64,000 bases of DNA. Source: an uncultured Verrucomicrobiae bacterium (GTDB lineage: Bacteria > Verrucomicrobiota > Verrucomicrobiia > Palsa-1439). The first letter of the stretch is position 1. Every line of letters begins with the position of its first letter. Below, piece by piece: positions 1-61,432 of this stretch. The DNA lies in assembly GCA_963712025.1 (NCBI GenBank), contig CAVQGJ010000010.1:262886-326885 (forward strand), given 5' to 3'. A model generated the notes under the pieces. It was not told the origin of the DNA and did no database searches. It saw only the letters and a list, made by a program, of their open reading frames with translations. Made by a program: the position numbers and the translations under genes.

Positions 1-556
1 GGCTTCTTCCTTGAGATGGTCCATCACCTCGTCAAACGGCTCGTGGTCGTCCTTGCCGAGCTTCTGCACGCCCATGACGACGTCGCCGTACATCTGCACG
101 AACCGGCGATAGCAATCCCACGCCCAACGCGCGTTGCCTGATTTCTTGGCGAGCACTTCCACCGTCTCGTCGTTCAGACCGAGGTTCAAAATCGTGTCCA
201 TCATGCCGGGCATCGACTCCCGCGCGCCCGACCGCACCGACACCAGCAGCGGGTCCTGGCGGTCGCCGAACTTCTTGCCCGGTGACCGTTTCGAGCTTCG
301 CCAGCGCCGTGTTCACCTGCTCGGTCAACACTTTCGGGTACGACTTCTTGTTCGCGTAATAGTAGGTGCAGACTTCCGTGGTGATCGTGAATCCCGGGGG
401 CACCGGCAACCCGATCCGCGTCATCTCATGCAGGTTCGCGCCTTTGCCGCCGAGCAACGGCTTCTGTCCGCCATTGCCGTCGGCCTTGCCACCACCAAAG
501 AAATAGACGTACTTCGACGACTTCTTGACTGAACTTTTTGACTTCTTCGTAGCCAT
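1..556 (-). CDS. ppdK: Pyruvate, phosphate dikinase, N-terminal part; gene continues beyond the window edge. Reading frame is broken by one extra base near 277-282.
   Basis: N-terminus MATKKSKSS...[45 protein letters not shown] is canonical PPDK. After ...LAKLETVTG the frame is lost; shifting by one base restores [37 protein letters not shown]. Confidence 0.85.
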
Positions 557-620
557 GTTCGTGAGCTTCCTCTATGTGAGTTTGTACTGCCTGATCAGAG
601 GCAGGAGCCGATTTTCCAAA

Positions 621-1244
621 TCAACGGGGGTAACGCCACAGCCACTCTACCAAACCCGCCCCCCCTGTCAACGCACTTTCGGCATTGGCGGTGTAGCGTG
701 CGCTGTCCCCAGCGCATCCGGCTACCTCGTTAAGCGACTTCATCAATTCACGCACGCGCTTGCCGAGTTCGGTGATCTTTTCCCGGTACTCCATGCGTTC
801 GTCCCCGAGATGGCGTAACGGTTCCCAGTCGACGTATTGCCGCTCAAGGATAATGCGGACGATCTCGTCGGCCTTCTTGGCTTTCGGATCGTCAAGTTGA
901 TCCGGGCGCACGTAGATCAGCGGCAGGATTAGATCGGTGCGCTTGCGCTCCTTCTCGTAAGCGGCGAAATCAACGAACTCCTTGCGACAAGGCTCGCTAA
1001 ACAGGTAGCCCGGGGTTACGACGGGAATAAAAAAGGCGGCATCAACTAGTCCCTTGTCGATGGCCTCCTCCCATCGCTGTCCCCACTGGATCTGGTCTAT
1101 GTCCTGCCAAATGATGATTTTTTGTCCGGTCAGCGTTCCGATCTCATGCTCAAGATTGACACGCAATTTGCTGAGGTAGTCCCCATCGTTCTTGTTGTCG
1201 AGGTGCCGGTAGCTAAAGAAACCCATCATGGAAATTGATTTCAT
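621..1244 (-). CDS. Standalone TIR-domain protein, 207 aa: TIR core plus a charged tail of about 80 aa.
   Basis: MMGFFSYRHLDNKND...IIIWQDIDQIQWGQRWEEAIDKGLVDAAFFIPVVTPGYLFSEPCRKEFVDF..LILPLIYV matches bacterial TIR motifs: FxSY, W.D, the SxxC..E helix with a putative catalytic Glu, and a hydrophobic LIPI-like strand. GC is about 53%, lower than the flanks. Confidence 0.6.
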   Translation of the reverse strand: MKSISMMGFFSYRHLDNKNDGDYLSKLRVNLEHEIGTLTGQKIIIWQDIDQIQWGQRWEEAIDKGLVDAAFFIPVVTPGYLFSEPCRKEFVDFAAYEKERKRTDLILPLIYVRPDQLDDPKAKKADEIVRIILERQYVDWEPLRHLGDERMEYREKITELGKRVRELMKSLNEVAGCAGDSARYTANAESALTGGAGLVEWLWRYPR

Positions 1245-1368
1245 AGGGCGTGCTTAGTCCTCATTCCGAGATGATCGACAGGGCATCACAACGTAACGTC
1301 ATGCTGCCGATTGTAGTCAGTCCGAGGCCTTTCGGCAAGCTCGCTGCCGTTTCCGCGCGTCCCTTGTA

Positions 1369-1989
1369 CTATCTCCGCCACCGCCGCGAATTCTTGCCGC
1401 GATGAATGCGGACGGCGTAGCGCGCCTTCGCTTCCTTCACCTGAAACCCGATCTTGCGGCGTTTCGGTTCGGGCGGGGTGAGAAGTTGACGGATGGCTTC
1501 GAAGAGGTTGCGGATCGACTTGTCGTGGCCTTCAAATTTGCGCTCCAACTCGACCAGCTTCTGCGCGAGGTCCCGATTCGACGCCAGCATCTCGCGCAAC
1601 CGCACGAACGCGCGCACGACCCGAACGCTGGCTTGTACCGCCACCGGGCTGTTGAGCACACTGGCCAACATGATCGCGCCGTGCTCGGTGAAGACATACG
1701 GCAGTTTCCGCCGCCCTCCATGCTGAGGGGTGTCCACGGACGTCTTCCGTCTTCCTAAACTTGAAGTCGCAATTTGCGACTTCAAGTTTGCAACCTCTTG
1801 GCGCGTAAGCAGAAACGCAAAATCAGGCGGGAATCGATCAGCGTTGCGCCCGACCTGCTCGTTCAATCGCTTCGTTGTGACGCCATAGATCTCGGCGAGA
1901 TCAGAGTCGAGCATCACTTTCTGGCCGCGAATCAGATAGATCAGTCGTTCAATTCGTTCGACGGGCGCAACGGCCTTGTCGTCGCTCAT
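1369..1989 (-). CDS. ORF6N / KilA-N-like domain protein. The ORF is open up to 2121; the likely start is M at 1989.
   Basis: IERLIYLIRGQKVMLDSDLAEIYGVTTKRLNEQVGRNADRFPPDFAFLLTRQEV ... LPYVFTEHGAIMLASVLNSPVAVQASVRVVRAFVRLREML is the characteristic ORF6N domain signature. Confidence 0.7.
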   Translation of the reverse strand: MSDDKAVAPVERIERLIYLIRGQKVMLDSDLAEIYGVTTKRLNEQVGRNADRFPPDFAFLLTRQEVANLKSQIATSSLGRRKTSVDTPQHGGRRKLPYVFTEHGAIMLASVLNSPVAVQASVRVVRAFVRLREMLASNRDLAQKLVELERKFEGHDKSIRNLFEAIRQLLTPPEPKRRKIGFQVKEAKARYAVRIHRGKNSRRWRR

Positions 1990-2141
1990 TTGGCCGCCCA
2001 GTGTAGCGAGTTGCTTCCTCTTCGACAAGTACTCCCCACGGCGCCGTGCCGCGAGGTCACTGCCGGTCTGCTGCCTTGGCGCTCTCGCATTCCAGCCGAT
2101 CCTGTGAGAGATTTGTGCCATTCGGATAGGAGGACGAATCG

Positions 2142-3014: not shown

Positions 3015-3049
3015 GACCGGAAGCCGGTAGGCCCGTCGCCCGCGAAAAG

Positions 3050-3123
3050 TGGAGCGGGCGATGGGAATCGAACCCACCTCACCAGCTTGGAAGGCTGGCG
3101 CATTACCACTATGCTACGCCCGC
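3050..3123 (-). tRNA. tRNA-Gly (anticodon TCC), 74 nt with encoded CCA
   Basis: The reverse complement reads GCGGGCGTAGCATAGTGGTAATGCGCCAGCCTTCCAAGCTGGTGAGGTGGGTTCGATTCCCATCGCCCGCTCCA: a 7-bp acceptor stem, anticodon loop CTTCCAA, and T-loop GGTTCGATTCC. Confidence 0.85.
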
Positions 3124-4521: not shown

Positions 4522-5763
4522 TCCCGCAATTGGCCGTCGCCAACGACAACGAACTTGTGGCTGGTCAATTCCTCCAGGCCCATCGGGCCTCGGGCGTGGA
4601 TTTTGTCCGTGGAAATCCCAATCTCCGCGCCAAACCCGTATTGTGCGCCGTCAGCCAGGCGCGTGCTGGCGTTCCAGAACACGCTCGAGCTGTCCACTTC
4701 GCGCAGGAATTTTTCGGCGGTCGCCTTGTTGCCCGTGACAATCGCATCGCTGTGGGCCGACCCGTATTTCGTGATGTGGTCGATGGCCTCGTCCACGCCG
4801 TTGACGACGCGCACGGCAAGAATCAGGTCAAGATACTCCGCGTACCAATCGGCTTCGGTCGCCGAACTTGCATTGGACACGAGCTTACGCGTCCGGTCGT
4901 CGCCGCGGAGTTCGACCTTGTTTTCCGCGAGTGCTTTCGCCACACGCGGCAGAAATTTGTCGGCGATCTTGTCGTCGATGAGCAGCGTCTCGATGGCGTT
5001 GCACACGCCGGGCCGCTGGCATTTGGCGTTGATGACGATCTTCTCCGCCATGTCGAAATCGGCGTCACGGTCGACGTACACGTGGCACACGCCCTTGTAG
5101 TGTTTGATGACGGGGATGCGTGATTTTTCCGCCACGGCGCGAATCAATCCCTCCCCGCCGCGCGGGATGCAAAGGTTGATCAGGTCATCGAGTTTCAGTA
5201 ACTCGTCGATAGCGGCGCGGTCCGTCGTCGGGACGACCGTGATGCTGTTCGGCGGCAGCCCGGGCACATTCATCGCCTCGGCGATGGCGAGGTTGCTGTG
5301 AGATCGCCTCCGAACCGCCGCGCAGGATCACCGCGTTGCCGGTCTTGAAACACAGGCACCCGGCGTCGGCGGTCACGTTCGGGCGCGACTCGTAAATGAT
5401 CAGGATCACGCCGATGGGCACGCGCACTTTCCGAATGCGAATCCCGTTCGGACGCGTCCATTCGTTGATGGTTGTCCCCACCGGGTCGGGCAAAGCCGCC
5501 ACTTCGCGGACGCCCTTCGCCATTTCCGCAATGCGTTTGTCGGTAAGCGTCAACCGATCGAGCATCGCCGATGAAAGCCCCGACTTCTTGCCCGCATCGA
5601 GATCCCTCGCGTTGGCCGACTTGATCGCGGCAGCGGATTTTTCGATCCCGTTGGCCATGGCCCGCAGCAGCGCGTTCTTTTTGTCCGCGTCAAACTTCGC
5701 GAGCGCGCGCGAGGCATCCCGCGACCGCTCGGCCAACAATCGTATCTGTTGTTTCAAATCCAT
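4518..5763 (-). CDS. proA: Gamma-glutamyl phosphate reductase; frameshifted by one extra base near 5298-5301.
   Basis: N-part (ORF 5185-5763): [53 protein letters not shown]-part (ORF 4518-5273): [45 protein letters not shown]. Removing one base joins GGSEAI(H)[16 protein letters not shown]. Confidence 0.9.
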
Positions 5764-6952: not shown

Positions 6953-7705
6953 TCACTTCTCTATCATCAAGTGCACGGCCACGATCACGCCGAACACCAC
7001 GACCGCGCCTCGCAGGATGCGGGGTGACAACCGTTGCGCCGTCTTCGCGCCGATGAAACCGCCGGCGATGGCCGCCAACGCCATGGCCAGCGCGATGGTC
7101 AGGATCGCCATGCCCTTGACGATGAAATACAGCGCCGCGGTGCCGTTGATGAGCGTGGCAAAAAAGTTCTTCATGCCGTTGGCGGCCTGCAAATCTTCCG
7201 GCAGAAAAATCGCCATCGCCGCCAGCATCAGTATCCCGATTCCCGCGCCAAAATAGCCGCCATAGACCGCGATGGCGAATTGGGACAACCACAGAGCCGC
7301 CGCGTGCTTCTTCGGGTGTGCGTCGGCCCGTTTCGACATCCAGCGTCCGATGGGCTCGTTGAGCAGGAGCAACCCGCACGCAAGCAGGATCAGGTACGGC
7401 ACGATGTAACGAAAAACGGACTCGGGCGTGTTCAGCAACAGGATCGCGCCCGTCAGCCCGCCCAGCACCGACGGGACCGACAACACCCAGACGCGCGCGC
7501 GGTTCTCCCTCAATTGCCGCCGGTACGCCCACGAACTCGTCACCGAGCCGGGCCAGATGGCCGCCGTGCTCGTCGCGTTGGCGGTGATCGACGACATGCC
7601 GCTATACAGCAGCGCCGGGAACGTGAGCAGCGTGCCGCCGCCCGCCACGGCATTGACAAAGCCCGCGCCGAACGCCGCGAGCAGGCTGACCCAGTAGATT
7701 TGCAT
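6953..7705 (-). CDS. TauE/SafE (DUF81) family sulfite/anion exporter; likely start MQIYWVSLL at 7705.
   Basis: Polytopic membrane protein with GAGFVNAVAGGGTLLTFPALL and the repeated G-rich half YGGYFGAGIGILMLAAM typical of TauE/SafE. Confidence 0.8.
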   Translation of the reverse strand: MQIYWVSLLAAFGAGFVNAVAGGGTLLTFPALLYSGMSSITANATSTAAIWPGSVTSSWAYRRQLRENRARVWVLSVPSVLGGLTGAILLLNTPESVFRYIVPYLILLACGLLLLNEPIGRWMSKRADAHPKKHAAALWLSQFAIAVYGGYFGAGIGILMLAAMAIFLPEDLQAANGMKNFFATLINGTAALYFIVKGMAILTIALAMALAAIAGGFIGAKTAQRLSPRILRGAVVVFGVIVAVHLMIEK

Positions 7706-7750
7706 ACGATTGGTTGCGCAGCATAACAAAGTTCTGCTAGCGTCACAAAC

Positions 7751-8930
7751 ATGCCTTCTGTCATCTTAAAAAAGGGCCGGGAACATCGCCTCTACGCGGG
7801 CCATAGCTGGGTGTACTCGGGCGAGATTGCCGACATCACCAGCAACCCGAAAGACGGCGACGCCGTCGACATCCGCGACCACAAAGAGCGCTTCATGGGG
7901 CGCGGACTGCTCAACACCCGCTCGCAAATCACCGTCCGCCGGTTCACGACGCAGAAAGAGGAGATCGACAGATCATTCTTCGCCCGCCGCATCGAGGCGG
8001 CGCTGGAATACCGACGCGAAAACACGTCCATTGCCGATGCGGAAGCGTTTCGGCTGGTGTCCACGGAGAGCGACCAGGTGCCCGGACTCATCGTCGACCA
8101 GTACGGCGACCACGTCGTCTTGCAGGCGCTCACGCTCGGCATCGATCAGCGCAAGCAACAGATCATCGAGGTCCTCCGCGAGATCGTTCAGCCGAAGGCC
8201 ATCGTCGAACGGAGCGACGTTCCCAGCCGCAAGCTGGAAGGGTTGGAGGAAACGAAGGGCGTGCTCGTCGGCGAGACCGATGCGGTCGTCCGCGTGCAGT
8301 TCAACCAGTTCTCCATCGAGGTCAACCTGCTCGAGGACCAGAAGACGGGTTTCTTTCTCGACCAGCGCGACAACTACGCCGAGGTCGCGCGCCACTGCGC
8401 GGGCAAACGCGTGCTCGATTGTTTCACCTACCACGGCGGGTTTGCGCTGGCGGCGGCAGTCGGTGACGCCAAGAGCACCGAGGCCGTCGAGATTTCCGAT
8501 CAGGCCGTGGCCCGGGCGCGCAAGAACGCCGAACTCAACGGGCTGACCGGGCAAGATCGAGTTCGTGTGCGCCAACGCGTTCGACGTGTTGAAGAAATAC
8601 GATGTCGAGAAGCGCCAGTACGACGTGATCGTGCTCGATCCGCCGTCGTTCACGCGCACGAAACAGAACGTGGGCGACGCGCTGCGCGGGTACAAGGAAA
8701 TCAACCTGCGCGCGCTGAAGATGCTGCCGCCGGGCGGCCTGCTGGCGACGTTCACCTGCTCGCACCACATCGATGCCGAGCTGTTCAAGTCCGTCGTGCT
8801 CGATGCCGCCGCCGACGCCAAGAAGACGGTGCGTCTCGTGAAAGTGCTCACCCAATCGCCCGACCATCCGATCCTGCCGGCAATACCGGAGACGGAATAT
8901 TTGCGGGGGCTGTTGCTGGAGGTGATGTGA
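7751..8930 (+). CDS. rlmI: 23S rRNA (cytosine-C5) methyltransferase, RlmI-like (PUA + class I SAM MTase); frameshifted by one extra base at about 8547-8551.
   Basis: N-part: ...PGLIVDQYGDHVVLQ..LDCFTYHGGFALAAA..NAELNGLTG. The frame then switches, and ORF 8565-8930 gives (GK)IEFVCANAFDVLKKY..YDVIVLDPPSFTRTKQNVGDALRGYKEINLRALKMLPPGGLLATFTCSHHI. Confidence 0.85.
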
Positions 8931-12060: not shown

Positions 12061-12162
12061 TTAAAATCTTTCAATTGTGCTCGGTCGTATGTTTTGTGCC
12101 TTGCAGTTGGCTACCGTTTTGCTACACTGCGCAACCGCAAGGAGGATTTGCAACATTTTTCT

Positions 12163-22697: not shown

Positions 22698-24035
22698 TTG
22701 AGACCCTGCATGTTCTCCAGAACTACACAAATATTGGCGTGTGCGGCCATCGGCGCCTGTGGATTGGTGCTGTTGGCCGGGCCGGCGCGAGCGGTGACAC
22801 TGACCTTGTGGACGAACAACATTGTCATACCGGCTGGCCGGACGTTTCAGATGCCCATCACAGCATCGGATCCTGACGGAAACCCTCTGAAGTTTGAGGT
22901 GAAGGTCAGCAACAAGAAATTGCAGGCGGAGTTCGCGCCCAATTCGAACCGCAGCTTGTTGATCAGCGTCAGCGGCGTAGACTCGAACAACAACCCGTTC
23001 ACCGGCAGCATGGTTGCTCAACTTTTCGAAGACCTCACCCCACTAACCACTGCCCGGATCATCGATCTCGTGGACAGTAACTTCTACAACGGGCTTCTCT
23101 TTCAGAGAGTGATCAAAGGGTTCGTGGCCCAATGTGGGGGCGCGACAACCAATCTCAATCTGGAATCGGGGGTGCCCCTGAATGATGATTACCAAGCCTC
23201 TCTTATTTACGACGGGTTCGGCCAACTGGGTATGGCCAACCGGGCATCGGCAACAACGTCTCCCAGCATTCATGACTCCAACGACTCACAGTTCTTTATT
23301 ACTGATATGGATGCTTCCATGGCAGACGCGAATAATCAGTTGCCGGGACTCAATTTCGAGCAACCCATCTTTGGGCAACTGACGAGCGGTCTCGACGTGT
23401 TTGCGCAAATCATGTCGACACCCGTGGGGACGAATCCAGATACCGGTGAGATCAGCGCACCGCTGTCGAATGTCGTGATGACTTCCATCAGCGTGATTAC
23501 AAACTCGCAAAATACCGTGTTGCGGTTGACGGCGATTGGGACGAATTTTCTCGGGAAGACTGTCGAAACAAATTCGCTCCCACCAGCAGCCATATCGAAT
23601 TTTCTCGGAACTGTGACGGTCACTGTCAGCGCAGCCAATGCGGCAAAACAGGTGGCGACGCAAACATTGGTGGTCAACGTTGTTACGGACACCGGCTCGT
23701 ATCCGCCGTTTTGGGGGCCACTGCCCAGCAGTGTGACCGTGTCACAGAGTGTGGCGACCGCGTTCATTGTCACGGTGACGAACGTTGATCGAACCTCTAC
23801 AAGTGCCAGCCTCCATGATGCCGCCACCCAGGCAAATCCCACAAACATGATCATCGACCAGACTCCGCACACGAGCTTGCTTACATTCAGTCCCGACGCG
23901 ACCCTCACGGGTATCGTCCATCTGGTCTTCACGGTGACCGACAATCTACATCAGCCCGATATCCATGACCTCGCCTTTCATGTGCTTCCCAGAAGCCCGA
24001 CGCCGACGATGACGATTGTGCCGCTGAATGGATAA
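22698..24035 (+). CDS. Secreted cyclophilin-type peptidyl-prolyl isomerase domain protein with a C-terminal beta-rich extension. It ends at a TAA that is in frame with the next ORF.
   Basis: Signal peptide (ILACAAIGACGLVLLAGPARA). Cyclophilin motifs FQRVIKGFVAQCGG, GQLGMANRA, DSNDSQFFIT and IFGQLTSGLDVFAQI. GC is visibly lower than the flanks. Confidence 0.75.
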   Translation: MRPCMFSRTTQILACAAIGACGLVLLAGPARAVTLTLWTNNIVIPAGRTFQMPITASDPDGNPLKFEVKVSNKKLQAEFAPNSNRSLLISVSGVDSNNNPFTGSMVAQLFEDLTPLTTARIIDLVDSNFYNGLLFQRVIKGFVAQCGGATTNLNLESGVPLNDDYQASLIYDGFGQLGMANRASATTSPSIHDSNDSQFFITDMDASMADANNQLPGLNFEQPIFGQLTSGLDVFAQIMSTPVGTNPDTGEISAPLSNVVMTSISVITNSQNTVLRLTAIGTNFLGKTVETNSLPPAAISNFLGTVTVTVSAANAAKQVATQTLVVNVVTDTGSYPPFWGPLPSSVTVSQSVATAFIVTVTNVDRTSTSASLHDAATQANPTNMIIDQTPHTSLLTFSPDATLTGIVHLVFTVTDNLHQPDIHDLAFHVLPRSPTPTMTIVPLNG

Positions 24036-24038
24036 TTC

Positions 24039-24476
24039 GTGGATGCGGGTACAACGATGCCCAACCGCAGCCGCATCAGCGTGACCGGCACGTTTGCGTT
24101 CAACAGCCAATCCGACCAGACCTTTAGCAGCAACGATGTGATGGAGTTGAACCTGGGAGATCCGTCGAATCCGCTTTCCGTGACCATCACACCAAATCTT
24201 AACTTGAAAGTACGGAATGGCTCGATCAGCGGGAAGGCGCGCCTGTCGACGTCGACATCAAGCAAAGTGAACGCCTCGGCACAGTTCGATATTGTGAAGA
24301 ACACGTTTGCCATATCGGTCCAGGGGTTTGATTTTCCGCAGCCTGGACTTACCAACAACGAGATTCAGGTCGGGGTGTCGATCGGGATCAATTACGGGTC
24401 AGACCTGAGGCCATGGGTGGAGATACGACATGGGGTTTTTGTGCCGCCCGCGCCCCTGGTGACCGGCAATCAGTGA
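24039..24476 (+). CDS. Beta-rich hypothetical protein; same frame as 22698-24035, separated only by TAA + TTC
   Basis: GTG 24039 lies 3 nt after the TAA at 24033-24035 in the identical frame. The sequence (SVTGTFAFNSQSD..VTITPNLNLKV..) continues the S/T/N-rich beta-strand character of the upstream C-terminus. Confidence 0.45.
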   Translation: MDAGTTMPNRSRISVTGTFAFNSQSDQTFSSNDVMELNLGDPSNPLSVTITPNLNLKVRNGSISGKARLSTSTSSKVNASAQFDIVKNTFAISVQGFDFPQPGLTNNEIQVGVSIGINYGSDLRPWVEIRHGVFVPPAPLVTGNQ

Positions 24477-33462: not shown

Positions 33463-34153
33463 ATGGAACTCAAACGATGGGTCAGCGTGGCGATTCGGAT
33501 AGCGGTCGCGCTTATCGTGGGCTTTTTTCTGTTGAGATTCGCTTTTCCGGGCGGGGGCCAAGGGTTTTCTGCGTTGGACAGGTTCTTTCAGATGGCAGTC
33601 GTGATATTCTACGTCCTCATCCTGTTTGGTCTGTTTGGCTGGCCGCTTCTGGGGAGCATCGGCGAGCGGATCGGAAATTCCATTTTCATGCCGAGCGACG
33701 CAAACTTTCAAATCGCGCCCGAATACAGCGTTGCCGAGGCGCAAGCCAAGAAAGGCCGATATCAAGAGGCCATCGACGAATATCGCAAGGTGATCCTCGA
33801 ATCATCCCGACGACATTTATCCGCATTTGCGCATCGCCGAGTTTGCCGCGAAGCAATTGAACGACTTGAAGCTGGCCGAACTCGAACTGCTCTCGGCGCT
33901 TGGAAAAGCCAAGGGGGAAGATTCCACCGCCTTGGCCGCCGGTCGTCTGGCCGATTTCTACCAGATCACGTTGCAGGACCCGGCACGGGCGCTGGATGTG
34001 ATGAAACAATTACGTGAAAAAATTCCGGGCACGAAACAGGCAACGCTGGCGGAACAACGCATCACGGTGCTCGAAACCATCGCGCGCGACGGCGTGCCGT
34101 TGCCAAGAGCGCACGACAAGATCGCCAACCGTCCATCGCGCTTCAAGATGTAG
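33463..34153 (+). CDS. Membrane-anchored TPR-like protein; frameshifted by one extra base near 33806-33808
   Basis: ORF 33463-34017 (TM helices, ...AQAKKGRYQEAIDEYRKVILES) continues in the +1 frame as PDDIYPHLRIAEFAAKQLNDLKLAELELLSALGKAKGED... (ORF 33827-34153). Confidence 0.6.
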
Positions 34154-38326: not shown

Positions 38327-38582
38327 GAACTTGGGGATTACTCTCCGAATTTGACCCCAGAAAGTCAATGTTTCTGACGCTGAGGGCTTGAGCGCGCGGC
38401 GAATGTGCGGCAGATAAGTGCGTATCACGACGAGCTTGCTCCTGCGGTCGGCGTACTGTAAACTACCACCATGACTGGGACAGCAATTGTGCGTGGGAGA
38501 GTGGTCAAGTTTCGGGTGTCGCCAGGACTGGCCCGCGCCCAAGATAGGAACCGTGGCAAGACGATGACCGAACGGCAAGCGA

Positions 38583-39047
38583 TTGAGCTTGTCGAAGTCA
38601 AGCGTCGGCGCCGGTCCTTGCGCGCTGCTCGACCTTATCTTGAAGGCCGTACTTGATACCTGCATTCTGAAACTGGCCACGTTTCCCCGGCCAGATAATC
38701 CCGCCGCGCTCACCGTGGAGCTTGGGCTGCGACGGTTGTTCGAGTGGTGGGTTTCACCAGCGATCCTCGAAGAATACGCCAACGTCCTATCCGAAGAACC
38801 GGAGTTTCTCGGCGAGGTCTCCCAGAACATCGAGCTATGCTATCCGTTGACCCGCCTGAGAATCGTTCGACACGAGCCGGACAATCGTTTCATCGAATGC
38901 GCCCTGGCTGTGAAGGCTGATTACTTGGTGACGGTGAACACGGCGTGCGGTCATTTTGATCGCAAAAGTTATGACGGAGTGCGCGTGATGACTCCCGGAG
39001 CATTTGTGAATTTGGACGCCGTGCAGCCTCTAATCCGCCGGCTGTAA
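38583..39047 (+). CDS. PIN-domain putative toxin (TIGR00305-like). The start is uncertain: TTG at 38583 or 38640.
   Basis: AVLDTCILKLATFPRPDNPAALTVELGLRRLFEWWVSPAILEEYANVL...RHEPDNRFIECALAVKADYLVTVN matches the PIN-family toxin pattern, including the conserved D..D..DN and a KADYLVT C-terminus. Confidence 0.65.
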   Translation: MSLSKSSVGAGPCALLDLILKAVLDTCILKLATFPRPDNPAALTVELGLRRLFEWWVSPAILEEYANVLSEEPEFLGEVSQNIELCYPLTRLRIVRHEPDNRFIECALAVKADYLVTVNTACGHFDRKSYDGVRVMTPGAFVNLDAVQPLIRRL

Positions 39048-39134
39048 TCCAACGCCCACGTTTTGCCTGCGCCAAAAACCGCTCGCCAACAAACGGGCTG
39101 GAGATGTAGGCTTGGCGTCGCGAGGGGAGGCTGA

Positions 39135-39450
39135 ATGACTCACGAACTTCAACTGCGTGTGACATTGGGAAAAGCCGTACGGTCGGTGATAGAACTCGCA
39201 AAGTCTCGTGGAATCGGCCAAACGCTTCCTCGATCTAACTATTCAGTAAGTTGGTGGCAGCCCGGTGGGGACGGTGGTGCCGTTGGGCACACGACTCACG
39301 ACAGAAAATTACCTTAAAGACTGTGAAGTCAGAAGCCCGCGCACCTTCACGAACGCGCACGCGACAAACACACTCAAACGCTCAGAGGCATTGACACTCT
39401 GGAGTCAACTTAGGACACTGGGCGCACCGACACTGGGAAAATGTTTATGA
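39135..39450 (+). CDS. Hypothetical small protein with a possible RHH-like N-terminus; frameshifted at 39261-39265
   Basis: Strong SD (GAGGGGAGG) before ATG 39135. MTHELQLRVTLGKAVRSVIELAKSRG has a beta-strand-plus-helix pattern. Removing one base from GCAGCCCGGTG fuses it to ORF 39265-39450. Confidence 0.35.
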
Positions 39451-49471: not shown

Positions 49472-51508
49472 TTATTGATTGCCTTGCGATAATCGCGCCA
49501 GCGCAGAACGCGCCGACGCGAGATCTGGCCGGAGCTTCAACGCCTGCTGGTAGTGCTGGATTGCCTCCGGCACTCGACCCGCTTTCTCCAAGGCGGTCCC
49601 CAGAGTGTAGTGCGCCTCGGGGTAATCGGGCTTGATCCGCAGCGCCTGCTCGCACTGGGCAATCGCCTCCGGCGCACGGCCCACATAGACCAAAGCCGTC
49701 GCGAGATTGACGTGTGCCTCGGCGAGATCAGGCCTGAAGCGCAGGACCTGCTCGAACTGGGCGATGGCTTCTTCGAGCCGGCCCGTCTGCGCCAGGGCCA
49801 TCGCGAGATTGTTGTGCGCCTCGACGTAATCGGGTTTGATTCGCACCGCCTGTTCATACTGCCCGATGGCCTCGCTGACTTTCCCCTCCCGCATCAAGGC
49901 ATTTCCCAGATTGCAGTGCCCATCGGCGAAGTCCGGCGTCATCCGCAGGATGTCCTCGTCGCGGGTGACGGTTTGCCCGGTCTTGGAATACAGCCGCCAA
50001 TGGGACACGGGATATTCCCGCGCGAGCACTGTATCGTGCGGAAACCAGGTCGGCGGATCGTCGTCGCCCGAGAGGAACAGATGCGTGGTCGTGGCGGTGA
50101 ACAGCCGGCCCGCTTCGGCCGGTAGTCCACAGTGCGTCTCGTAGACATACAGCCAGCCAATCCGGGCGAAACATCCGAACTCTTGCACCCGCTCGTTCTC
50201 CGGTACTTTGGCCGCCAGTTCCCCGTAGTACCACACCTGCCATTTCGTGCCGTCGCTCATGCACAACTCGACTGGGTGACCGGTTTTTTTATGGGCGCGC
50301 GCCAAATCCTGAATCATCGCGGGGATGTCGGCCATGGTTTTGCTGATGGACATGTGCGTCAGGTTCAAACTCCACGCCGCGGTCACGGTATACGCCACCA
50401 ACAAGCCCGACGACCCCAACCGCAGCCAGCGGAGAGGAGTCCCATCGGCGACATAAGCAATTTGAAGCACGAACAGCGGGATGAAATACATCGCCGCGCG
50501 TTCCACCGGAAACTGGACGTGCGCCAGATAATGCCCGGCGTAAATCTGCCCGACAACAATCAGCGTACAGAACGCCACGATTAAACCAGCCCGACGCCGC
50601 TGCCAAATCAGCCAGATGATTGCCGCCAGAGCCAGGGCGGTGACAATCGGAGCCAGGACGAGCTCCGTCGGGGTTGATGGCCACGGATAGAAGGGGCTGC
50701 CGTGGTACAGAACGCATTTGACCAGCGAGAGGACCGTGTCGCCCACGAAATGTGTGCCGCCCCACCAGAACACCGCGCCGTTTGATTGGCCCATGATGAT
50801 GACTTTCGGCAGATAGCTGGCGCCGACGACCAGCGCGCTCGACGCGAGCGCGAACAGGTACGCCAGTGATTGCCGCCGCAACAGGAACAGCACAATCAGG
50901 AGCACCGCATTGTAGTAGTACAACAGGGAGAGGTTCGACAGCGCCGCCAATGCGCCCGACCACACGGCAACGCAACCCCAACCGGGTCTGTCATCCGAGG
51001 TTTGCAGGGCGGCAGCGGTCGCCAAGAGTGCAAATGCCGTCGCCATGCCGTACCCGCGCCCGATACTGAAATAATCCAGCACATAGGCGTTGACGAGCAG
51101 GGCGGCAAACGCCAGCCGGCCAATCCATCGGTTCGTGAACGATCCCCGGAGTTGCCAGAGTGCTGCGAGGTACACACCGAACGCCGCCAGGCTCGGAACC
51201 CGTATCCGCTGGATCTCGCCAAGCCAGGGCAGCCGGTAGCACCCGCTGGCCGCAAGGATGAACAGGTAATGCTGGAGCGCGTTGAAATCATGCCCGTTTG
51301 CGGCGGTGATACAATCCGCCAAACTGCCGTGCCGGAGGCGATAGAGCACGCCCCACTCGTCCGGCCCCAGCGGCAGGTTGAAAAACCGATAGGCGACGTA
51401 GAACAACCCGAGCAATGTCAGAACAACTTCCACCCGGTATTCCGCGAAAGCGAATCCGCCAAACCACCGGCGTTCACGGCTGTCCAAACTCTTGGACTCC
51501 TGCTTCAT
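49472..51508 (-). CDS. Membrane glycosyltransferase family 39 (PMT/ArnT-like) protein with C-terminal TPR repeats
   Basis: About 11 N-terminal TM helices with GT-C-like loops. The C-terminus has 5-6 TPR units (AIGQYEQAVRIKPDYVEAHNNLAMALAQTGRLEEAIAQFEQVLRFRPD...). Confidence 0.8.
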   Translation of the reverse strand: MKQESKSLDSRERRWFGGFAFAEYRVEVVLTLLGLFYVAYRFFNLPLGPDEWGVLYRLRHGSLADCITAANGHDFNALQHYLFILAASGCYRLPWLGEIQRIRVPSLAAFGVYLAALWQLRGSFTNRWIGRLAFAALLVNAYVLDYFSIGRGYGMATAFALLATAAALQTSDDRPGWGCVAVWSGALAALSNLSLLYYYNAVLLIVLFLLRRQSLAYLFALASSALVVGASYLPKVIIMGQSNGAVFWWGGTHFVGDTVLSLVKCVLYHGSPFYPWPSTPTELVLAPIVTALALAAIIWLIWQRRRAGLIVAFCTLIVVGQIYAGHYLAHVQFPVERAAMYFIPLFVLQIAYVADGTPLRWLRLGSSGLLVAYTVTAAWSLNLTHMSISKTMADIPAMIQDLARAHKKTGHPVELCMSDGTKWQVWYYGELAAKVPENERVQEFGCFARIGWLYVYETHCGLPAEAGRLFTATTTHLFLSGDDDPPTWFPHDTVLAREYPVSHWRLYSKTGQTVTRDEDILRMTPDFADGHCNLGNALMREGKVSEAIGQYEQAVRIKPDYVEAHNNLAMALAQTGRLEEAIAQFEQVLRFRPDLAEAHVNLATALVYVGRAPEAIAQCEQALRIKPDYPEAHYTLGTALEKAGRVPEAIQHYQQALKLRPDLASARSALARLSQGNQ

Positions 51509-55779: not shown

Positions 55780-56283
55780 ATGGCACTGAACGTTCCAACA
55801 GAACTCGAGAAGCACATCGACGAGATCGTCACGCATTACCCGCCGCAGCACAAACGGGCGGCGGTGCTGTGGCTGTTGCATCTCTTGCAGGAACAGTTCG
55901 GCCAACTCGGCAAGGAACAGGTCGAGTGGACGGCGACCAAGCTCGGCCTGCAGCCGATCAACGTGTGGGAGTTGATCACGTTCTACCCGATGTTCACGGC
56001 CAAACCGCGCGGCAAGTTCCACATCAAGGTCTGCCGCACGCTCTCATGCGAACTCTGCGGCTGCGGCGGCATCCTCGAACGATTGCAGAAGAAACTCGGC
56101 GTCAAGCTGGACGAGAACACGAGCGATGGTCTGTTCACGATTTCCACGGTCGAATGTCTGGCGGCCTGCGGCACCGGCCCGGTGATGATGGTCAACGACG
56201 AGTTGTTCGAGAACCTCACGCCCGACAAGGCCGAGGCGATCGTCAACCGGATCAAGACCACGGGCAAACTCGAGCCGCAACCA
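55780..56283 (+). CDS. nuoE: NADH-quinone oxidoreductase subunit E. There is no in-frame stop before nuoF, so the E/F boundary is approximate.
   Basis: Thioredoxin-like [2Fe-2S] motifs: [10 protein letters not shown] and [19 protein letters not shown]. The frame runs straight on through ...[33 protein letters not shown] into NuoF. Confidence 0.8.
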
Positions 56284-57583
56284 TTGCCGCCGGTATTGCC
56301 CGCGCATCCGCTGGAGAAGCGCGTCCTGATGGCCAACATGAGCAAGCCCGGCTACAAGGGCGCGATCGAGGACTACGTTCGCGAGGGCGGCTACAAGGCG
56401 TTGCCGAAAGCGCTCGGCATGAAGCCCGAGGAAATCGTCGCCGAGGTCAAAAACAGCGAGGTTCGCGGACGCGGCGGCGCGGGTTTTCCCTGCGGCATGA
56501 AATGGAGCTTTCTCGCCAAGGGCACCGGCAAGCCGATTTATCTGGTCTGTAACGCCGACGAGTCCGAGCCCGGCACGTTCAAGGACCGTCAGCTTCTCCA
56601 TTACGATCCGCACCAGCTTGATCGAGGGCATCCTCGTCTCGTGCTACGCCGTCGGCGCGCACGCGGCCTACATTTATATTCGTGGCGAGATGCCTTACGG
56701 CGCGAAGATTCTCATCAACGCCATCGAGGAGGCGCGCGCGAAGAAGTTCCTCGGCAAAAATATCCTCGGCAAGGGGTTCGACTGCGAGATTTACGTTCAT
56801 CGCGGCGCGGGCGCGTATATCTGCGGCGAAGAAACGGGTCTCATCGAATCGCTCGAAGGCAAACGCGCCTATCCGCGCATCAAACCGCCGTTCCCGGCGG
56901 TGGTCGGCCTGTTCGGTTGTCCGACCGTGGTGAACAACGTCGAGACGCTGTCGAACATCCCGCATATCATCAACAATGGCGCGGCGTGGTTCAAGGGAAT
57001 GGGCGTGCCCGGCTCGACCGGCACGCGCTTGGTCTGCGTCAGCGGCCCGGTGAAACGGCCCGGCTACTACGAATTCGAGATGGGCAAACTGACGATGCGC
57101 CAACTCATCTATGATTTGTGCGGCGGGCTTCAGGAGGGCCGCCAATTGAAAGGCGTGGTGCCCGGTGGCAGCTCGATGCCCGTGCTCAAAGCCGACCAGA
57201 TTGATGTGGCGCTGGATTTCGAATCGTTGCGCAAAGCCGGCACGATGGCCGGTTCGGGTGGCGTAATCGTGCTCGATGATACGGTCGACATCGTGCAGAG
57301 CACGCTCAATGTCGCGCAGTTTTACGCGCACGAGTCGTGCGGCCAGTGCACGCCGTGCCGCGAAGGCACGCTGTGGATGGAGAAAATGCTCCACCGCATC
57401 AAACACGGCCATGGCCGGCCCGAGGACGTGGATCTGCTCTGGGATGTCGCCGACAACATCGACGGCAAGACGATCTGCCCGCTCGGTGAAGCCGCCGCCT
57501 GGCCCGTGAAAGCCTTCGTCACGAAATACCGCGGCGAGTTCGAGAAGGCGTGCAAGAATGGCAACGGAACGAAGAAGCATTAA
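56284..57583 (+). CDS. nuoF: NADH-quinone oxidoreductase subunit F; frameshifted near 56617-56620. The start is uncertain: TTG 56284/56296 or ATG 56329.
   Basis: [35 protein letters not shown]..., then +1: [23 protein letters not shown]...[26 protein letters not shown]...[12 protein letters not shown]. Confidence 0.88.
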
Positions 57584-59291
57584 GATGCCTGACAACACGA
57601 TTAAACTAACGATCGACGGCAAAGAGGTCGCGGCCCCGAAGGGGATGAACCTGATCGAGGCGGCGAAGCTTGCCGGCATCGAGGTGCCGCACTATTGCTA
57701 TCATCCGAAGTTGGCGGTGGTGGGCAACTGCCGCATGTGCCTCGTCGATGTCGGTATGCCGAAGATGGGCCCGGACAGGAAGCCGGAGATGGGACCCGAC
57801 GGCAAACCCGTGATCATGTTTGGCCCGAAGCTGACCATCGGCTGCAATACGTCCGTGGGCGAGGGCATGGTGGTCCATACGCGTTCGCCGAAAGTGATCA
57901 AGGCGCGCGAGGGCGTGATGGAATTCCTGCTCATCAATCATCCGCTCGATTGCCCGATCTGCGACCAGGCCGGCGAATGCCGCTTGCAGGAGTTCAGCGT
58001 CGACTACGGCAAAGGCCAGAGCCGCTTCGTGGAAGAGAAGGTCCACAAACCGAAGAAGACGGAAATCGGCCCGAAGATCATGCTCGACGACGAACGCTGC
58101 ATCCTTTGCTCGCGGTGCGTCCGCTTCATGAAGGACGTGGCGGGCCAGGATTGCCTCGGGTTCGTGAATCGCGGCAGTTATTCCACGCTGACATGTTACC
58201 CCGGCATGGAACCGAACACGAATTACGATCTCAACATCACCGATATCTGCCCCGTCGGCGCGCTCACGTCGAATGATTTCCGGTTCAAGCAGCGCGTGTG
58301 GTTCCTGAAAGAGACGAAGAGCGTGTGCCCGAATTGCGCCACGGGTTGCAACACCGTCTTGTGGTCGCGGGAAGGCGTCGTGCACCGACAGACGCCGCGC
58401 GACAACGACGCAGTCAATCAATGCTGGATGTGCGACTCGGGCCGGCTGCACTACAAGTTTATCAACGATCCCCGATCGCATTACTCGCGCCCACCGTGAA
58501 GTCGTCGGCGATGGGCGAACGACTCACCTTGACATGGCCTGAGGCGACGCGGCAGATCGCGGAGAGACTCGGGCCGCTGAAGGGCGATGGTTCGGCCATC
58601 GCCGCGATTGGGACCGCGCGCGCGACGACCGAGGAGTTGTTCCTGTTCAACAAACTCGTGCGCGAAGTTCTGGGCGCGGAGTTGGTGGATTGCGTGCCGC
58701 ACACCGGCGAAGGCGATAAATTCCTGCTGAATGCCGACCGCAATCCAAACACGAATGGCGCGAGGCTGACGGGCGTTGCGGGCGAGGCGATGGGCAGCCG
58801 GATTCCGGCCATTGCCGAGGCAATCAAGTCGGGCAAGATCAAGGCGCTGCTCGTTCACGGTGAGAACGTGTCGAAATACGGAATCGCCGAGGACGCGCTC
58901 GCGAAGCTGGATTTGCTGGTGGTCATCGATACCCTGCCGAACAAGGCGACGGAACTGGCGCACTACGTCCTGCCCGGCGCGACCTTCGCCGAAAAGCGCG
59001 GCACGTTCATCAATGCCAAGAACCGCCTGCAACGGTTGAACACGGCGAGTCCCATCACCCGGCATCGCGCGGCCGGAATGGCAGACATTTGCGGCGCTGC
59101 TGAACGAATTGGGCGGCGACGGCGGTTATCTGGCGATTGAAGATGTGTTTGCCGACATGGCGCGGTCGCTTACGCCGCTGGCGGGACTGAATCTTTCCAA
59201 GATTGGCGATCTCGGCGTCGAACTGAAGCCCGCGGCGGAACCAAAAGGTGAGGCGAAGACCGAGGCCGCCGCCGCAGGAGCGAAGGCATGA
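57558..59291 (+). CDS. nuoG: NADH-quinone oxidoreductase subunit G; two frameshifts (58471-58475 and near 59057-59062). Likely start MPDNTIKL at 57585.
   Basis: CYHPKLAVVGNCRMCLVDV, HPLDCPICDQAGECRLQ, CILCSRCVRF, CPVGALTS. Then a -1 shift gives ...IALLAPTVKSSAMGERLTLTWPEATRQIAERL, and a +1 shift gives ...GIARPEWQTFAALLNELGGDGGYLAIEDVF... ending in a TGA that overlaps the nuoH ATG. Confidence 0.88.
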
Positions 59292-60325
59292 TTCCATTGC
59301 TTCTCATTCATCTCATCAAGATTGCCTGTGTCATCGGCGTAATGCTGGGCATTGTGGCGTACACGGTGCTGGCGGAACGCAAGATTTGCGCGTGGATGCA
59401 GGATCGCATCGGGCCAAACCGCGTCGGGCCGTTCGGTCTGTTGCAGCCGCTGGCCGATGGCTTGAAATTCGTTTTCAAGGAGGACGTGCTGCCGCATCAC
59501 GTCAACAAGGTCTATTTCACCTTGGCGCCCATGATTGCCATGATCCCCGCTCTGATCACGATTGCGGTCGTGCCGTGGGGCAGCCAGTTGGTGATTCCCC
59601 GCATTTCGCCCGAGCCGATCCCGTGCGTGATTGCCAACCTGAATGTCGGCATCCTGTTCGTGTTCGCGATTGCCTCGCTGGGGGTGTACGGCATCGTGCT
59701 GGCGGGGTGGTCGAGCAACTCGAAGTATCCGTTCCTCGGCGGCATCCGCTCCAGCGCGCAGATGATTTCCTACGAAGTCTGCCTCGGATTGAGCGTGGTG
59801 CCGGTGTTCATGCAGGTCGGCTCGCTCAATCTCCCGAAGGTGGTCGAATACCAGACGCAGCACACGTGGCTGGGGTTCACCCAGCCGCTGTCGTTTTTCA
59901 TTTTCCTCGTAAGCGCGTTTGCCGAGACCAACCGCCTGCCGTTCGATTTACCCGAGGCGGAACAGGAGCTGGTCGGTGGGTACCACACCGAGTACAGCTC
60001 CATGAAGTTCGCGATGTTCTTCATGGGTGAATACGCCGCGATGTTCGTGGCCTCGGCGCTGATGGCAACGCTGTTTTTCGGCGGTTGGTCGCTGCCGTTC
60101 GCGCCGTTCAACGCGCCCGCGCTAACGCTCGGCGTGGGCCTGGCGCATATCGGCATCTTCCTGGCGAAAGTGTGCTGTTTCCTGTTCTTCTTCATTTGGG
60201 TGCGGTGGACGATCCCGCGATTCCGCTATGACCAACTGATGACGTTGGGATGGAAGATCTTCATCCCGCTGACGCTGTTGAACATTCTGATTTCCGGAGT
60301 CGTGCTGGCGGCGATGACGAAATGA
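59288..60325 (+). CDS. nuoH: NADH-quinone oxidoreductase subunit H
   Basis: LAERKICAWMQDRIGPNRVGPFGLLQPLADGLKF ... GWSSNSKYPFLGGIRSSAQMISYEV ... ETNRLPFDLPEAEQELVGGYHTEYS. Confidence 0.93.
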   Translation: MIPLLLIHLIKIACVIGVMLGIVAYTVLAERKICAWMQDRIGPNRVGPFGLLQPLADGLKFVFKEDVLPHHVNKVYFTLAPMIAMIPALITIAVVPWGSQLVIPRISPEPIPCVIANLNVGILFVFAIASLGVYGIVLAGWSSNSKYPFLGGIRSSAQMISYEVCLGLSVVPVFMQVGSLNLPKVVEYQTQHTWLGFTQPLSFFIFLVSAFAETNRLPFDLPEAEQELVGGYHTEYSSMKFAMFFMGEYAAMFVASALMATLFFGGWSLPFAPFNAPALTLGVGLAHIGIFLAKVCCFLFFFIWVRWTIPRFRYDQLMTLGWKIFIPLTLLNILISGVVLAAMTK

Positions 60326-60897
60326 CCATGCAAGTCAAACGGCCAAAACTGACGATTTGGGAGCGGACGTATCTTCCGCAGATTTTGCACGGGATGTGGC
60401 TGACCCTGTGCCACATCCCGCGGCGGAAGTTCACGCGTCATTATCCGGAGGAGAAACCGCCGCTCTATGGCGCGTATCGCGGCGCGCCGACGCTGGTGAA
60501 GGACCCCGAGGGACGAGTCAAATGCGTTTCGTGCCAATTGTGCGAGTTCGTTTGTCCACCGAAGGCGATCCGCATCACGCCGGGCGCGCGGCCGGATGAC
60601 GTTCCCGACGCCAATGTCGAAAAGGAACCCGAGGATTTCGTCATCGACATGTTGCGCTGCATTTATTGCGGGTACTGCGAGGAAGTGTGTCCCGAAGAGG
60701 CGATCTTCCTGAAGCAGGATTTTGCGATCGCCGGGTACACGCGCGAAGAACTACAGTTTCACAAGGAGAAGTTGCTGGAATTGGGAGGCGTGCAACCGGA
60801 CTCGATTTGGAAATGGAAATTCAAGGGGGCGCCGCCGCTGGATGCGCCGGGTGCAAGTGTGAGAAATCCACAGACGGACGCAGATAAACACCGATGA
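60322..60897 (+). CDS. nuoI: NADH-quinone oxidoreductase subunit I (2x[4Fe-4S])
   Basis: The ATG overlaps the nuoH stop (ATGA). Cluster motifs CVSCQLCEFVCP and CIYCGYCEEVCP. Confidence 0.9.
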   Translation: MTMQVKRPKLTIWERTYLPQILHGMWLTLCHIPRRKFTRHYPEEKPPLYGAYRGAPTLVKDPEGRVKCVSCQLCEFVCPPKAIRITPGARPDDVPDANVEKEPEDFVIDMLRCIYCGYCEEVCPEEAIFLKQDFAIAGYTREELQFHKEKLLELGGVQPDSIWKWKFKGAPPLDAPGASVRNPQTDADKHR

Positions 60898-60929
60898 GTG
60901 TCCGTGTGAATCTGTGGCGTAACTGACCG

Positions 60930-61432
60930 ATGATTGTTCACGACATACTATTCTGGTTTTTCAGCATCGCAATGCTGGTATGCGGGCTGTTGGTGATCGG
61001 CAGTTCGCAATCCCGTCGCCAGCGCGTTGTTTCTGGTGATGCTGTTTGTGTTCCTGGCCGGCCTGTTTGTCCTGCTCGGAGCGTTCTTCATCGCGGCGAT
61101 CCAGGTGCTGGTATATGCGGGCGCGATCATGGTGTTGTTCCTCTTTGTCATCATGCTGCTGGATATCAAGGCCAGCGAGCGCCGCAAGTTCCGGGCGCTC
61201 GGCGTCGTTGGCGGAATCGCGGTGGCCGCGATGTTCGTGTGGGAACTGGAAATCATCCTCTCCCGGCCGCTGACCGCCCGTGGCCGCCGGCGGCGCCGAA
61301 CTGAGCGGCGGTCTGGAGCAGGTCGTCAAACCGCTGTTTGCCAACTACATGTTGCCCTTCGAGGTGACGGCGTTGTTGCTGTTGGTGGCGATGATCGGCG
61401 TGGTTTTGCTTTCCAAGAAGGAACTCAAATGA
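60930..61432 (+). CDS. nuoJ: NADH-quinone oxidoreductase subunit J; two frameshifts (near 61002-61008 and at 61276-61280)
   Basis: MIVHDILFWFFSIAMLVCGLLVIGS, then +1: RNPVASALFLVMLFVFLAGLFVLLGAFFIAAIQVLVYAGAIMVLFLFVIMLL...ILSRPLTA, then +1: VAAGGAELSGGLEQVVKPLFANYMLPFEVTALLLLVAMIGVVLLSKKELK, with a TGA overlapping the nuoK ATG. Confidence 0.85.

Follow-up and report, generated by a model that had tools for sequence, protein, structure and literature searches.

Single extra bases in conserved genes

The 64,000 nt of DNA analysed here (the window) come from an uncultured Verrucomicrobium of peat or bog and belong to a publicly deposited MAG-type contig of 0.8 Mb; the window sequence carries frame breaks in complex I (nuo) genes, ppdK, proA, rlmI and a TPR-repeat gene. 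The initial annotation had described these conserved genes as frame-broken, with single-base repairs that yield recognizable peptides, and several long ORFs (ftsK, hppA, rimO and mntH among them) as uninterrupted; all of this is so. The public protein collection (NCBI+ENA) contains the identical out-of-frame 184-aa TPR product, P0208, from one 808,842-bp contig, and for this site the presence of the frame break in the deposited record is demonstrated. We infer the sequencing technology only from the contig size (0.8 Mb is typical of long-read metagenome assemblies) and from the contig names of relatives, two of which (L162 and L163) have Flye-style "contig_N" names; L162 has frameshifts of its own in other genes.

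Each insertion was compared with one to seven relatives, which are 88–95% identical to the window (L001 and L002, ~90%; L081, 95%; L082–L085, L101 and L162–L168), except that the ppdK comparator, L085, is 78% identical. Several such 88–95% relatives co-occur in peat metagenomes. The closest, L081, is a MEGAHIT-style (k141_), short-read-style contig from another sample, and its 95% identity over 757 bp was the nearest approach to an independent assembly of the same strain, of which none was found. The coding lesions and one further site are as follows (inserted base in brackets):

277–279, reverse strand, ppdK: extra C, G[C]CCGG; the coding strand ACC GG[G] CAA becomes ACC GGC AAG on repair, and L085 reads TTG-CCGGT
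5302, reverse strand, proA: extra G, GTGA[G]ATCG (coding strand AT[C]T CAC); relatives have ATT or ATC, and the extra base is missing in five (L082–L085, L101)
8547, forward strand, rlmI: extra C, CTGA[C]CGGGCAAG; six relatives (L162, L163, L165–L168) all have ACG GGC
33802, forward strand, TPR-repeat membrane protein: extra T, CTCGAA[T]CATCCC; L164 lacks it, and twelve homologues read ...VI(L/I)E(H/Y)PDDIYPHL
39261–39265, forward strand, CCCGG site in a "small ORF": within a window-specific segment (38334–39400, a 1-kb island) absent from L164
53689, forward strand, nuoB: extra G (or C), CTGCCC[G]GTGG; relatives have CCC GTG or CCG GTG
54350, forward strand, nuoC: extra C, CTG[C]CCGGAA; five of five relatives have (C/T)TGCCGG
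54771, forward strand, nuoD: extra base, ATT[C]CCG; relatives have ATT CCG or ATC CCG
56620, forward strand, nuoF part of a fused nuoEF: extra base, CTT[G]ATCG; L001 has CTT ATC and L002 CTG ATC
58474, forward strand, nuoG, upstream member of a pair of extra bases separated by 11 nt: CCCC[G]ATCG; absent from L001 and L002
58485, forward strand, nuoG, downstream member of this pair: ATTAC[T]CGCG, where relatives read ACC or GCT
59049, forward strand, nuoG: extra G inside GATC, GCGA[G]TCCC; seven relatives lack it
61004, forward strand, nuoJ, first: extra T, GGCAG[T]TCGC; seven relatives lack it
61273, forward strand, nuoJ, second: extra A, GCTG[A]CCGCC; L081 reads CTG-CCG

All 13 coding lesions are +1 insertions specific to the window. 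Comparison with orthologues from the nearest relatives, which the initial annotation had proposed as a check, showed that none of them carries any of the insertions, and there is no coding deletion in the window relative to the aligned relatives. Alignment also moved some lesions, four of the originally proposed sites being off by 3–9 nt: the TPR lesion had been put at the CCC of 33806–33808 and not at 33802, the last nuoG lesion at 59057–59062 and not at 59049, and the second nuoJ lesion at 61276–61280 and not at 61273. The proA break is real, although alignment to relatives places it at 5302 and not at 5298–5301, and the base thought to be missing from nuoG at 58471–58475 proved instead to be two extra bases, 58474 and 58485; with both removed the protein reads DPHRITAPTVK, compared with DPHRITTPTVK in L001.

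When the inserted bases are removed, ProA (414 aa), RlmI (392 aa), the TPR protein, NuoB (194 aa), NuoC (210 aa), NuoD (412 aa), the NuoE-NuoF fusion (600 aa), NuoG (576 aa; the repair at 59049 gives NTAIPSPGIARPEWQ) and NuoJ (166 aa) are full length with no stop codons. The NCBIfam matches of the repaired ORFs run end to end in one stretch (ProA, NF001221 3–418 of 418; NuoB, NF011390 7–170 of 183; NuoD, TIGR01962 1–386 of 386; NuoEF, TIGR01958 and TIGR01959), and the repaired N-terminus of PpdK matches TIGR01828 positions 2–161 in a single stretch. Repaired RlmI is 93–95% identical to many intact 392-aa orthologues, about 100 orthologues having exactly this length. The NuoE-NuoF fusion is conserved in five relatives.

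The site at 39261–39265, which had been counted among the broken genes, is probably not one, judging from the sequence of the region: it has no homologue, its candidate ORFs have no Pfam matches, and Rfam and ARAGORN returned a tRNA-Gly only and no RNA that would account for it. Wherever a relative could be aligned, the coding sequence showed no additional indels, and GC3 frame plots and ORF inspection revealed no further broken genes in the gene-poor parts at 14.7–16.2, 18.1–19.2, 24–26.2 and 28.75–29.5 kb.

Evidence on whether the lesions are real

If the extra bases were truly genomic, the organism would have an inactivated complex I, PpdK and ProA, or else widespread +1 or quadruplet decoding at CCC-G and GGG-C; we regard this as extremely improbable. 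Genuine loss of complex I, PpdK, ProA, RlmI and the TPR protein by frameshift mutation would fit the occurrence of lesions in the public record, demonstrated at the TPR site, and the finding of nine lesions in one operon, as expected once that operon was already dead. However, each of the 13 lesions is a +1 insertion although indels in bacteria are biased towards deletion, their sites recur in specific sequence contexts (below), and core functions (proA, ppdK) are among those broken. The mixed lesion spectrum of real pseudogenes is absent from the window: there are no coding deletions and, after repair, no nonsense mutations, larger deletions or lost starts. Nine independent indels should moreover have been accompanied by about 100 unconstrained substitutions. 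On the window branch N/S in nuo is 59/273 = 0.22, compared with 0.38 for L001 and 0.21 for L002, and it is 29/162 = 0.18 when only the broken nuo genes are counted, so that relaxed purifying selection on the window lineage is not seen (0.18–0.22 versus 0.21–0.38 in relatives). Because these values are no higher than in intact relatives, true pseudogenisation is very unlikely. The initial annotation had favoured consensus error over simultaneous pseudogenisation of these genes, and the window-specific +1 insertions, the full-length repairs, the unrelaxed selection and the source in a deposited 0.8-Mb MAG-type contig all support this well.

Real insertions might instead be bypassed by programmed +1 ribosomal frameshifting or quadruplet decoding at sites of the CCC-G or GGG-C type. 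The tRNAs for proline and glycine are the classic +1 shifters, and six sites (ppdK, rlmI, nuoB, nuoC, nuoD and the first in nuoG) can be parsed as CCC-N or GGG-N with the correct frame resuming behind it. The remaining seven lie in unrelated contexts, and at the two nuoG insertions the ribosome would have to shift twice in succession within 11 nt. None of the sites is followed by a 0-frame stop or rare codon. All of the insertions are missing from every relative, even at up to 95% identity, so there is no conserved recoding site. The features of prfB-type +1 frameshifting (a conserved slippery P-site, a slow or stop 0-frame codon and sharing with orthologues) are thus absent from these sites, and we find recoding scarcely credible.

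Sequence context of the inserted bases

Ten sites had initially been assigned to CCCG/CGGG runs. Strictly, five of the 13 inserted bases are inside CCCG/CGGG (six if rlmI is counted), against a background of 5.9% (P = 6e-4); CCCG ranks top of the 136 strand-collapsed 4-mers, with a significance that is only borderline after correction. The larger CCCGG/CCGGG contain four of the 13 insertions (P = 3e-5), yet these are only four of the 195 such sites in the window, and the "motif-locked" pattern that had been proposed is better described as a context preference. Three insertions are the G of GATC, and GATC, CCGG and CCCG lead an unbiased 4-mer scan. Identical contexts recur: TGCC[C]GG at four sites and [G]ATCG at three, three of the eight occurrences of TGCCCGGT in the window are frameshift sites, and the 11-mer ACCGGGCAAGA, noted earlier as common to ppdK and rlmI, occurs exactly twice in the window, at those two sites. 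Twelve of the 13 insertions have a GATC or CCGG no more than 11 nt away, versus 31% of background positions (P = 6e-6, uncorrected), and the same proximity test with five control palindrome pairs gave no significant result. These motif statistics are partly post hoc, and single motifs are borderline after correction for 136 4-mers. The errors nonetheless depend on sequence context. A single rule, GCCGG to GCCCGG, is refuted by rlmI and nuoB, whose relatives read CCCGT. A run-length (homopolymer-compressed) consensus could cover TGCC[C/G]G but not proA and nuoF, whose output is no mixture of run lengths.

Homopolymer-length miscalls by flow-based or early nanopore chemistry, which had been offered as one source of the breaks, fit the six insertions that lengthen a C, G or T run of 1–3 nt. 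However, seven of the 13 are not homopolymer extensions, the affected runs are all ≤4 nt, no deletions were found, and the 21 homopolymers of 6–7 nt in the window (the full set of at least 6 nt) all lie in intact frames or intergenic DNA, with no excess of errors at long runs. This explanation is therefore quite improbable.

GATC and CCGG are two classic methylation palindromes, and base modification by itself could be the cause if methyltransferases specific for them perturbed the nanopore signal, so that basecaller or polisher inserted a base nearby. The proximity to GATC/CCGG with flat controls, the lead of GATC, CCGG and CCCG in the 4-mer scan and the recurrence of identical contexts all agree with such a cause, as do several offsets of 7–9 nt, since the pore senses roughly a 9-mer. 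Modification at CCGG-type sites had been suggested initially, and its fit to the context holds if it is extended to GATC. On the other hand, errors touch only ~1% of the 873 GATC/CCGG sites, no methyltransferase gene came to light in the window, and nuo has the same motif density as elsewhere yet eight-fold more errors. Methylation-induced nanopore errors have moreover been published as A/G or C/T (R/Y) substitutions (PMC11610573), whereas all errors here are insertions; the motif enrichment that marks such errors is present. We hold modification as the sole cause only tentatively, and it is somewhat unlikely that the error pattern reflects the activity of two methyltransferases (GATC and CCGG) in this uncultured lineage.

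Clustering in nuo and likeness to known assembly errors

Nine of the 13 insertions fall inside the 10.4 kb of nuo (P = 3e-5), and since the density of GATC and CCGG there equals that elsewhere, motif density cannot explain this eight-fold clustering. At seven of the nine nuo sites the inserted base is a relative's allele at the flanking column (null 0.37, P = 0.016), and at four of nine when only close relatives are used (null 0.10, P = 0.008); the test was permutation-calibrated and run on the repaired alignment, and its P values are best read as about 0.01–0.03. That the inserted base is so often an allele of the relatives suggests strain-mixed pile-ups as a co-factor.

A mixture of strains could in principle suffice, if SNP alleles of two co-assembled strains were kept side by side ("allele stacking") to give a +1 insertion. 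Both bases do occur as relatives' alleles at proA (A/G), nuoB (C/G), nuoD (T/C), nuoF (T/G), nuoG 58485 (T/C), nuoJ 61273 (A/C) and the TPR gene (His CAT/Tyr TAT), in line with the calibrated probabilities above, and mixture accounts for the clustering in one region and for Pro CC[C/G] and Gly GG[G/C] third positions that yield "CCCG/CGGG"; several 88–95% relatives are indeed found together in peat metagenomes. However, the coincidence fails at rlmI, where six relatives show no second allele, and at nuoC and the first nuoJ site; the identical 11-mer and the triple [G]ATCG are left unexplained; and matching −1 errors, in which neither allele is kept, would be expected, yet there are none in coding sequence. 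Codon position does not discriminate, because a third position adjoins two of the three slots: eight of 13 insertions can be read as third-position synonymous alleles, and we estimate that ~45% would be by chance. Strain mixture as the whole cause is accordingly doubtful.

We conclude, with a probability of about 0.9, that the 13 frame breaks are single-base over-calls made during consensus building of a metagenome assembly, probably a long-read one, and not mutations in the organism. Against this, an insertion-only bias departs from the textbook nanopore error profile. Such over-calls would arise at ambiguous columns of the read pile-up. The ambiguity may be partly driven by context, at or within ~10 nt of GATC or CCGG, and partly local, if reads over the nuo stretch were sparse or came from different strains, in which case the consensus could have recorded both variants at a polymorphic position. 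The pattern points to ambiguous pile-ups caused by base modification, strain mixture or both.

There is no new biology in the extra bases unless accurate reads confirm them. The finding is mainly a warning about data quality, as annotation would render six of 11 complex I genes, together with ppdK, proA, rlmI and the TPR-repeat gene, as pseudogenes or split proteins, and metabolic reconstructions would wrongly score the organism as having neither NADH dehydrogenase nor a route to proline. For frameshift-aware polishing, the combination of insertions only, recurrent contexts and regional clustering offers a useful signature, and it might also indicate GATC and CCGG modification in the lineage.

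Among known systems, pseudogenes of reductive evolution likewise have several frameshifts in one operon; the window differs in its unrelaxed selection, its lack of deletions or stops and its insertion-only, context-recurrent lesions. Collapsed-strain consensus (Strainberry, PMC8302730; PMC13087279) similarly merges close strains, and here the error sites are positions polymorphic among relatives and are clustered regionally, although the tandem writing of both alleles is our own suggestion, for which we found no paper. Methylation-induced nanopore errors (Lohde et al. 2024, PMC11610573; strand-specific mismatch, PMC11610603) also occur at short methyltransferase-type motifs, with only a fraction of the copies wrong in the assembly, and are described at ambiguous positions. 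Those are substitutions, whereas the window has +1 insertions, and its methylation and platform are putative. The proovframe preprint is reportedly also concerned with frameshift (indel) errors in long-read-only MAGs. Such errors are a known property of these genomes, visible as IDEEL-type truncations and commoner in soil-type, strain-rich, low-coverage samples (Sereika et al. 2022, PMC9262707; nanoMDBG 2026, PMC13087279), and there as here single-base indels split conserved genes in a very long MAG contig while relatives are intact and one-base edits restore the genes. In their textbook form they are mostly deletions in long homopolymers, whereas those in the window are insertions only, lie outside all runs of at least 6 nt, and repeatedly hit the contexts TGCC[C]GG and [G]ATCG.

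Thirteen single-base insertions in coding sequence

The window (GC ~60%) was aligned to its relatives and all gaps were listed. The nearest relatives, as judged by NuoH, are 'Verrucomicrobia bacterium bog_1451' (L001) and 'Verrucomicrobiia SPRUCE_370' (L002), both MAGs with ~90% DNA identity to the window over 51.7–63.7 kb; other relatives of 78–95% identity were taken from JGI, ENA and NCBI metagenomes (L081–L085, L101, L162, L163, L164 and L165–L168). In coding sequence the window displays exactly 13 single-base length differences, all of which are insertions and none of which is present in any available relative; the nuoJ insertion at 61273, for example, is missing from the 95%-identical, MEGAHIT-style contig L081.

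Insertions located by alignment to relatives (gene, position, extra base in square brackets in its context; length of the repaired protein; alleles that relatives show at that position)
ppdK, ~279, extra C, G[C]CCGG
proA, 5302, extra G, GTGA[G]ATCG; 414 aa; A/G
rlmI, 8547, extra C, TGA[C]CGGGC; 392 aa
TPR-repeat membrane protein gene (TPR), 33802, extra T, CGAA[T]CATCC; 229 aa; His/Tyr
nuoB, 53689, extra G, CTGCCC[G]GTGG; 194 aa; Pro CCC/CCG
nuoC, 54350, extra C, CTG[C]CCGG; 210 aa
nuoD, 54771, extra C, ATT[C]CCG; 412 aa; Ile ATT/ATC
nuoF, 56620, extra G, CTT[G]ATCG; 600 aa as NuoE-NuoF fusion; Leu CTT in L001, CTG in L002
nuoG, 58474, extra G, CCCC[G]ATCG; 576 aa
nuoG, 58485, extra T, TAC[T]CGCG; ACC/GCT
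nuoG, 59049, extra G, CGA[G]TCC
nuoJ, 61004, extra T, CAG[T]TCG; 166 aa
nuoJ, 61273, extra A, CTG[A]CCG; A/C

The initial annotation had also counted 13 frame breaks; that many exist, but several had been misplaced. Four (TPR, nuoG 59049, nuoJ 61273 and, marginally, proA) had been set 3–9 nt too deep into the adjoining C/G run, and a base thought to be missing from nuoG is really two insertions 11 nt apart, removal of which gives DPHRITAPTVK (DPHRITTPTVK in L001). A "small ORF" listed as broken is uncountable, its site lying within a 1-kb island (38334–39400) that is missing in L164 and whose candidate ORFs have no family match. Indels of 1–2 nt in both directions between the window and its relatives are confined to intergenic DNA, as expected of 90%-identical genomes; at 12122, 53882, 26180, 29442 and 42311 such intergenic single-base differences run in both directions, and error and real divergence are indistinguishable there.

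Deletion of the 13 bases gives uninterrupted ORFs, each repaired protein matches its NCBIfam model as a single end-to-end stretch, and dozens of intact 392-aa orthologues are 93–95% identical to the repaired RlmI. After repair nuoE and nuoF form one continuous ORF (55780–57583), a fusion that five relatives (L001, L002, L005, L006 and L007) likewise have as their usual arrangement. Lineage-specific codon changes counted in a three-way alignment of nuoA-L from the window, L001 and L002 gave 59 nonsynonymous and 273 synonymous changes on the window branch, an N/S of 0.22 (0.38 for L001 and 0.21 for L002), and the corresponding counts for the six broken nuo genes alone are 29/162. A truly dead operon with nine independent frameshifts should have gathered numerous substitutions free of constraint, along with occasional stops and deletions, and nothing of the sort is seen; this lack of decay, together with the 13:0 bias toward insertion, makes genuine pseudogenisation very unlikely. 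The frame breaks are almost certainly a consensus artefact and no biological feature, and the initial annotation's preference for such an artefact over gene loss holds, given that insertion bias, the healthy repaired genes and an N/S that is not raised.

The out-of-frame TPR product is present verbatim in a public protein collection (P0208, 184 aa, nonsense tail included), so that frameshift belongs to a deposited assembly. P0208 is seen on one contig only (NCBI and ENA), whose size of 808,842 bp suggests that long reads lie behind that assembly.

Sequence context and possible strain mixture

Ten of the sites had been assigned to CCCG/CGGG runs; we find 5–6. By strict count 5/13 inserted bases fall inside CCCG/CGGG, against a background of 5.9% of positions (P=6e-4); for CCCGG/CCGGG the count is four (background 1.4%, P=3e-5), and three insertions are the G of GATC (background 2.6%, P=4e-3). 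Since just 4 of the 195 CCCGG/CCGGG sites in the window are disrupted, nothing about the pattern is motif-"locked", as had been proposed. Recurrent contexts are nonetheless evident: TGCCCGG is found at four insertion sites and [G]ATCG at three, TGCCCGGT has eight copies in the window of which three are frameshift sites, and both window copies of the 11-mer ACCGGGCAAGA, which had been noted as shared, are frameshift sites. A GATC or CCGG lies within 11 nt of 12 of the 13 insertions, compared with 31% of all positions (P=6e-6), and for five pairs of other palindromic 4-mers used as controls no enrichment near the insertions was seen. An unbiased scan of 136 strand-collapsed 4-mers ranked CCCG, GATC and CCGG as the top three, with single motifs only borderline after multiple-test correction.

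These contexts are too heterogeneous for programmed +1 frameshifting, which would also need two shifts 11 nt apart and a site shared with relatives, none of which has the insertions; it is excluded for practical purposes. Of the mechanisms put forward in the initial annotation, the part that stands is that context matters. Classic homopolymer miscalling does not fit, since 7/13 insertions extend no homopolymer and all 21 runs of 6–7 nt in the window are clean. Base modification, extended here to GATC, is plausible, but the documented methylation-induced nanopore errors are A/G or C/T substitutions and not insertions (PMC11610573).

The 10.4 kb from nuoB to nuoJ hold 9/13 errors (P=3e-5), and GATC, CCGG and CCCG are as dense there as elsewhere in the window. 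Many of the insertions set side by side two bases that occur among relatives as alternative alleles of one position. In the realigned, repaired alignment a column flanking the insertion has the inserted base among its alleles at 7/9 sites in nuo (null 0.37 by simulation, P=0.016), or at 4/9 when close relatives only are considered (null 0.10, P=0.008). This coincidence suggests a pile-up of reads from more than one strain, in which both alleles would have entered the consensus. Such mixture would also account for CCCG/CGGG arising where Pro and Gly codons end in C or G; it fails, however, at rlmI (a single allele in six relatives), at nuoC and at the first nuoJ site, and leaves the recurrent contexts unexplained. 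It is best regarded as an unproven local co-factor in the consensus artefact.

Other features of the window

Features observed in the course of this analysis
621–2121: lower-GC stretch adjoining ppdK, with a TIR_2-domain protein (621–1244, -) and an ORF6N-domain protein (1369–2121, -); a candidate defence or mobile island
~7.7 kb: switch from minus- to plus-strand genes, coinciding with GC skew that is negative to ~8 kb and positive beyond
24033–24035: one in-frame stop between a 445-aa cyclophilin-like secreted protein (22698–24035) and a 146-codon ORF (24036–24476) that keeps the frame and has coding-like GC3; the two may just be separate genes, or the stop may reflect read-through or a nonsense error
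26197–28773 (858 aa, +) and 49472–51508 (678 aa, -): two membrane H+-pyrophosphatase genes, both intact
~38640–39047: PIN_3-domain (toxin-like) gene in the 1-kb island, overlapping a spurious 5' extension of an opposite-strand 834-aa ORF (L164 orthologue, 666 aa)
57558–57583: nuoF/nuoG overlap; extra DNA separates them in L001 (~0.4 kb, ~7914–8316) and L002 (~1.1 kb, ~7154–8287), the latter encoding a peptide like, by eye, the window's ORF6N-domain protein
63113–63185: in-frame 31+23 nt insertion in nuoL, window-specific (missing in L001 and L002), adding ~18 residues in a loop; the inserted DNA has short inverted repeats

Relation to known assembly errors

The relative L162 (ERZ25039454 contig_13463, a long-contig assembly with Flye-style contig names) has frameshifts of its own: the M32 carboxypeptidase gene carries a 2-nt insertion at ~11650 and ftsK one of 1 nt at ~14685, while neither place is broken in the window or in L163. 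Such errors seem common across this family of assemblies. The value of these observations lies in a warning on this public MAG and in a recognisable error signature. Long-read-only MAGs, and soil-derived ones in particular, are known to be prone to frameshift errors (PMC9262707, PMC13087279).
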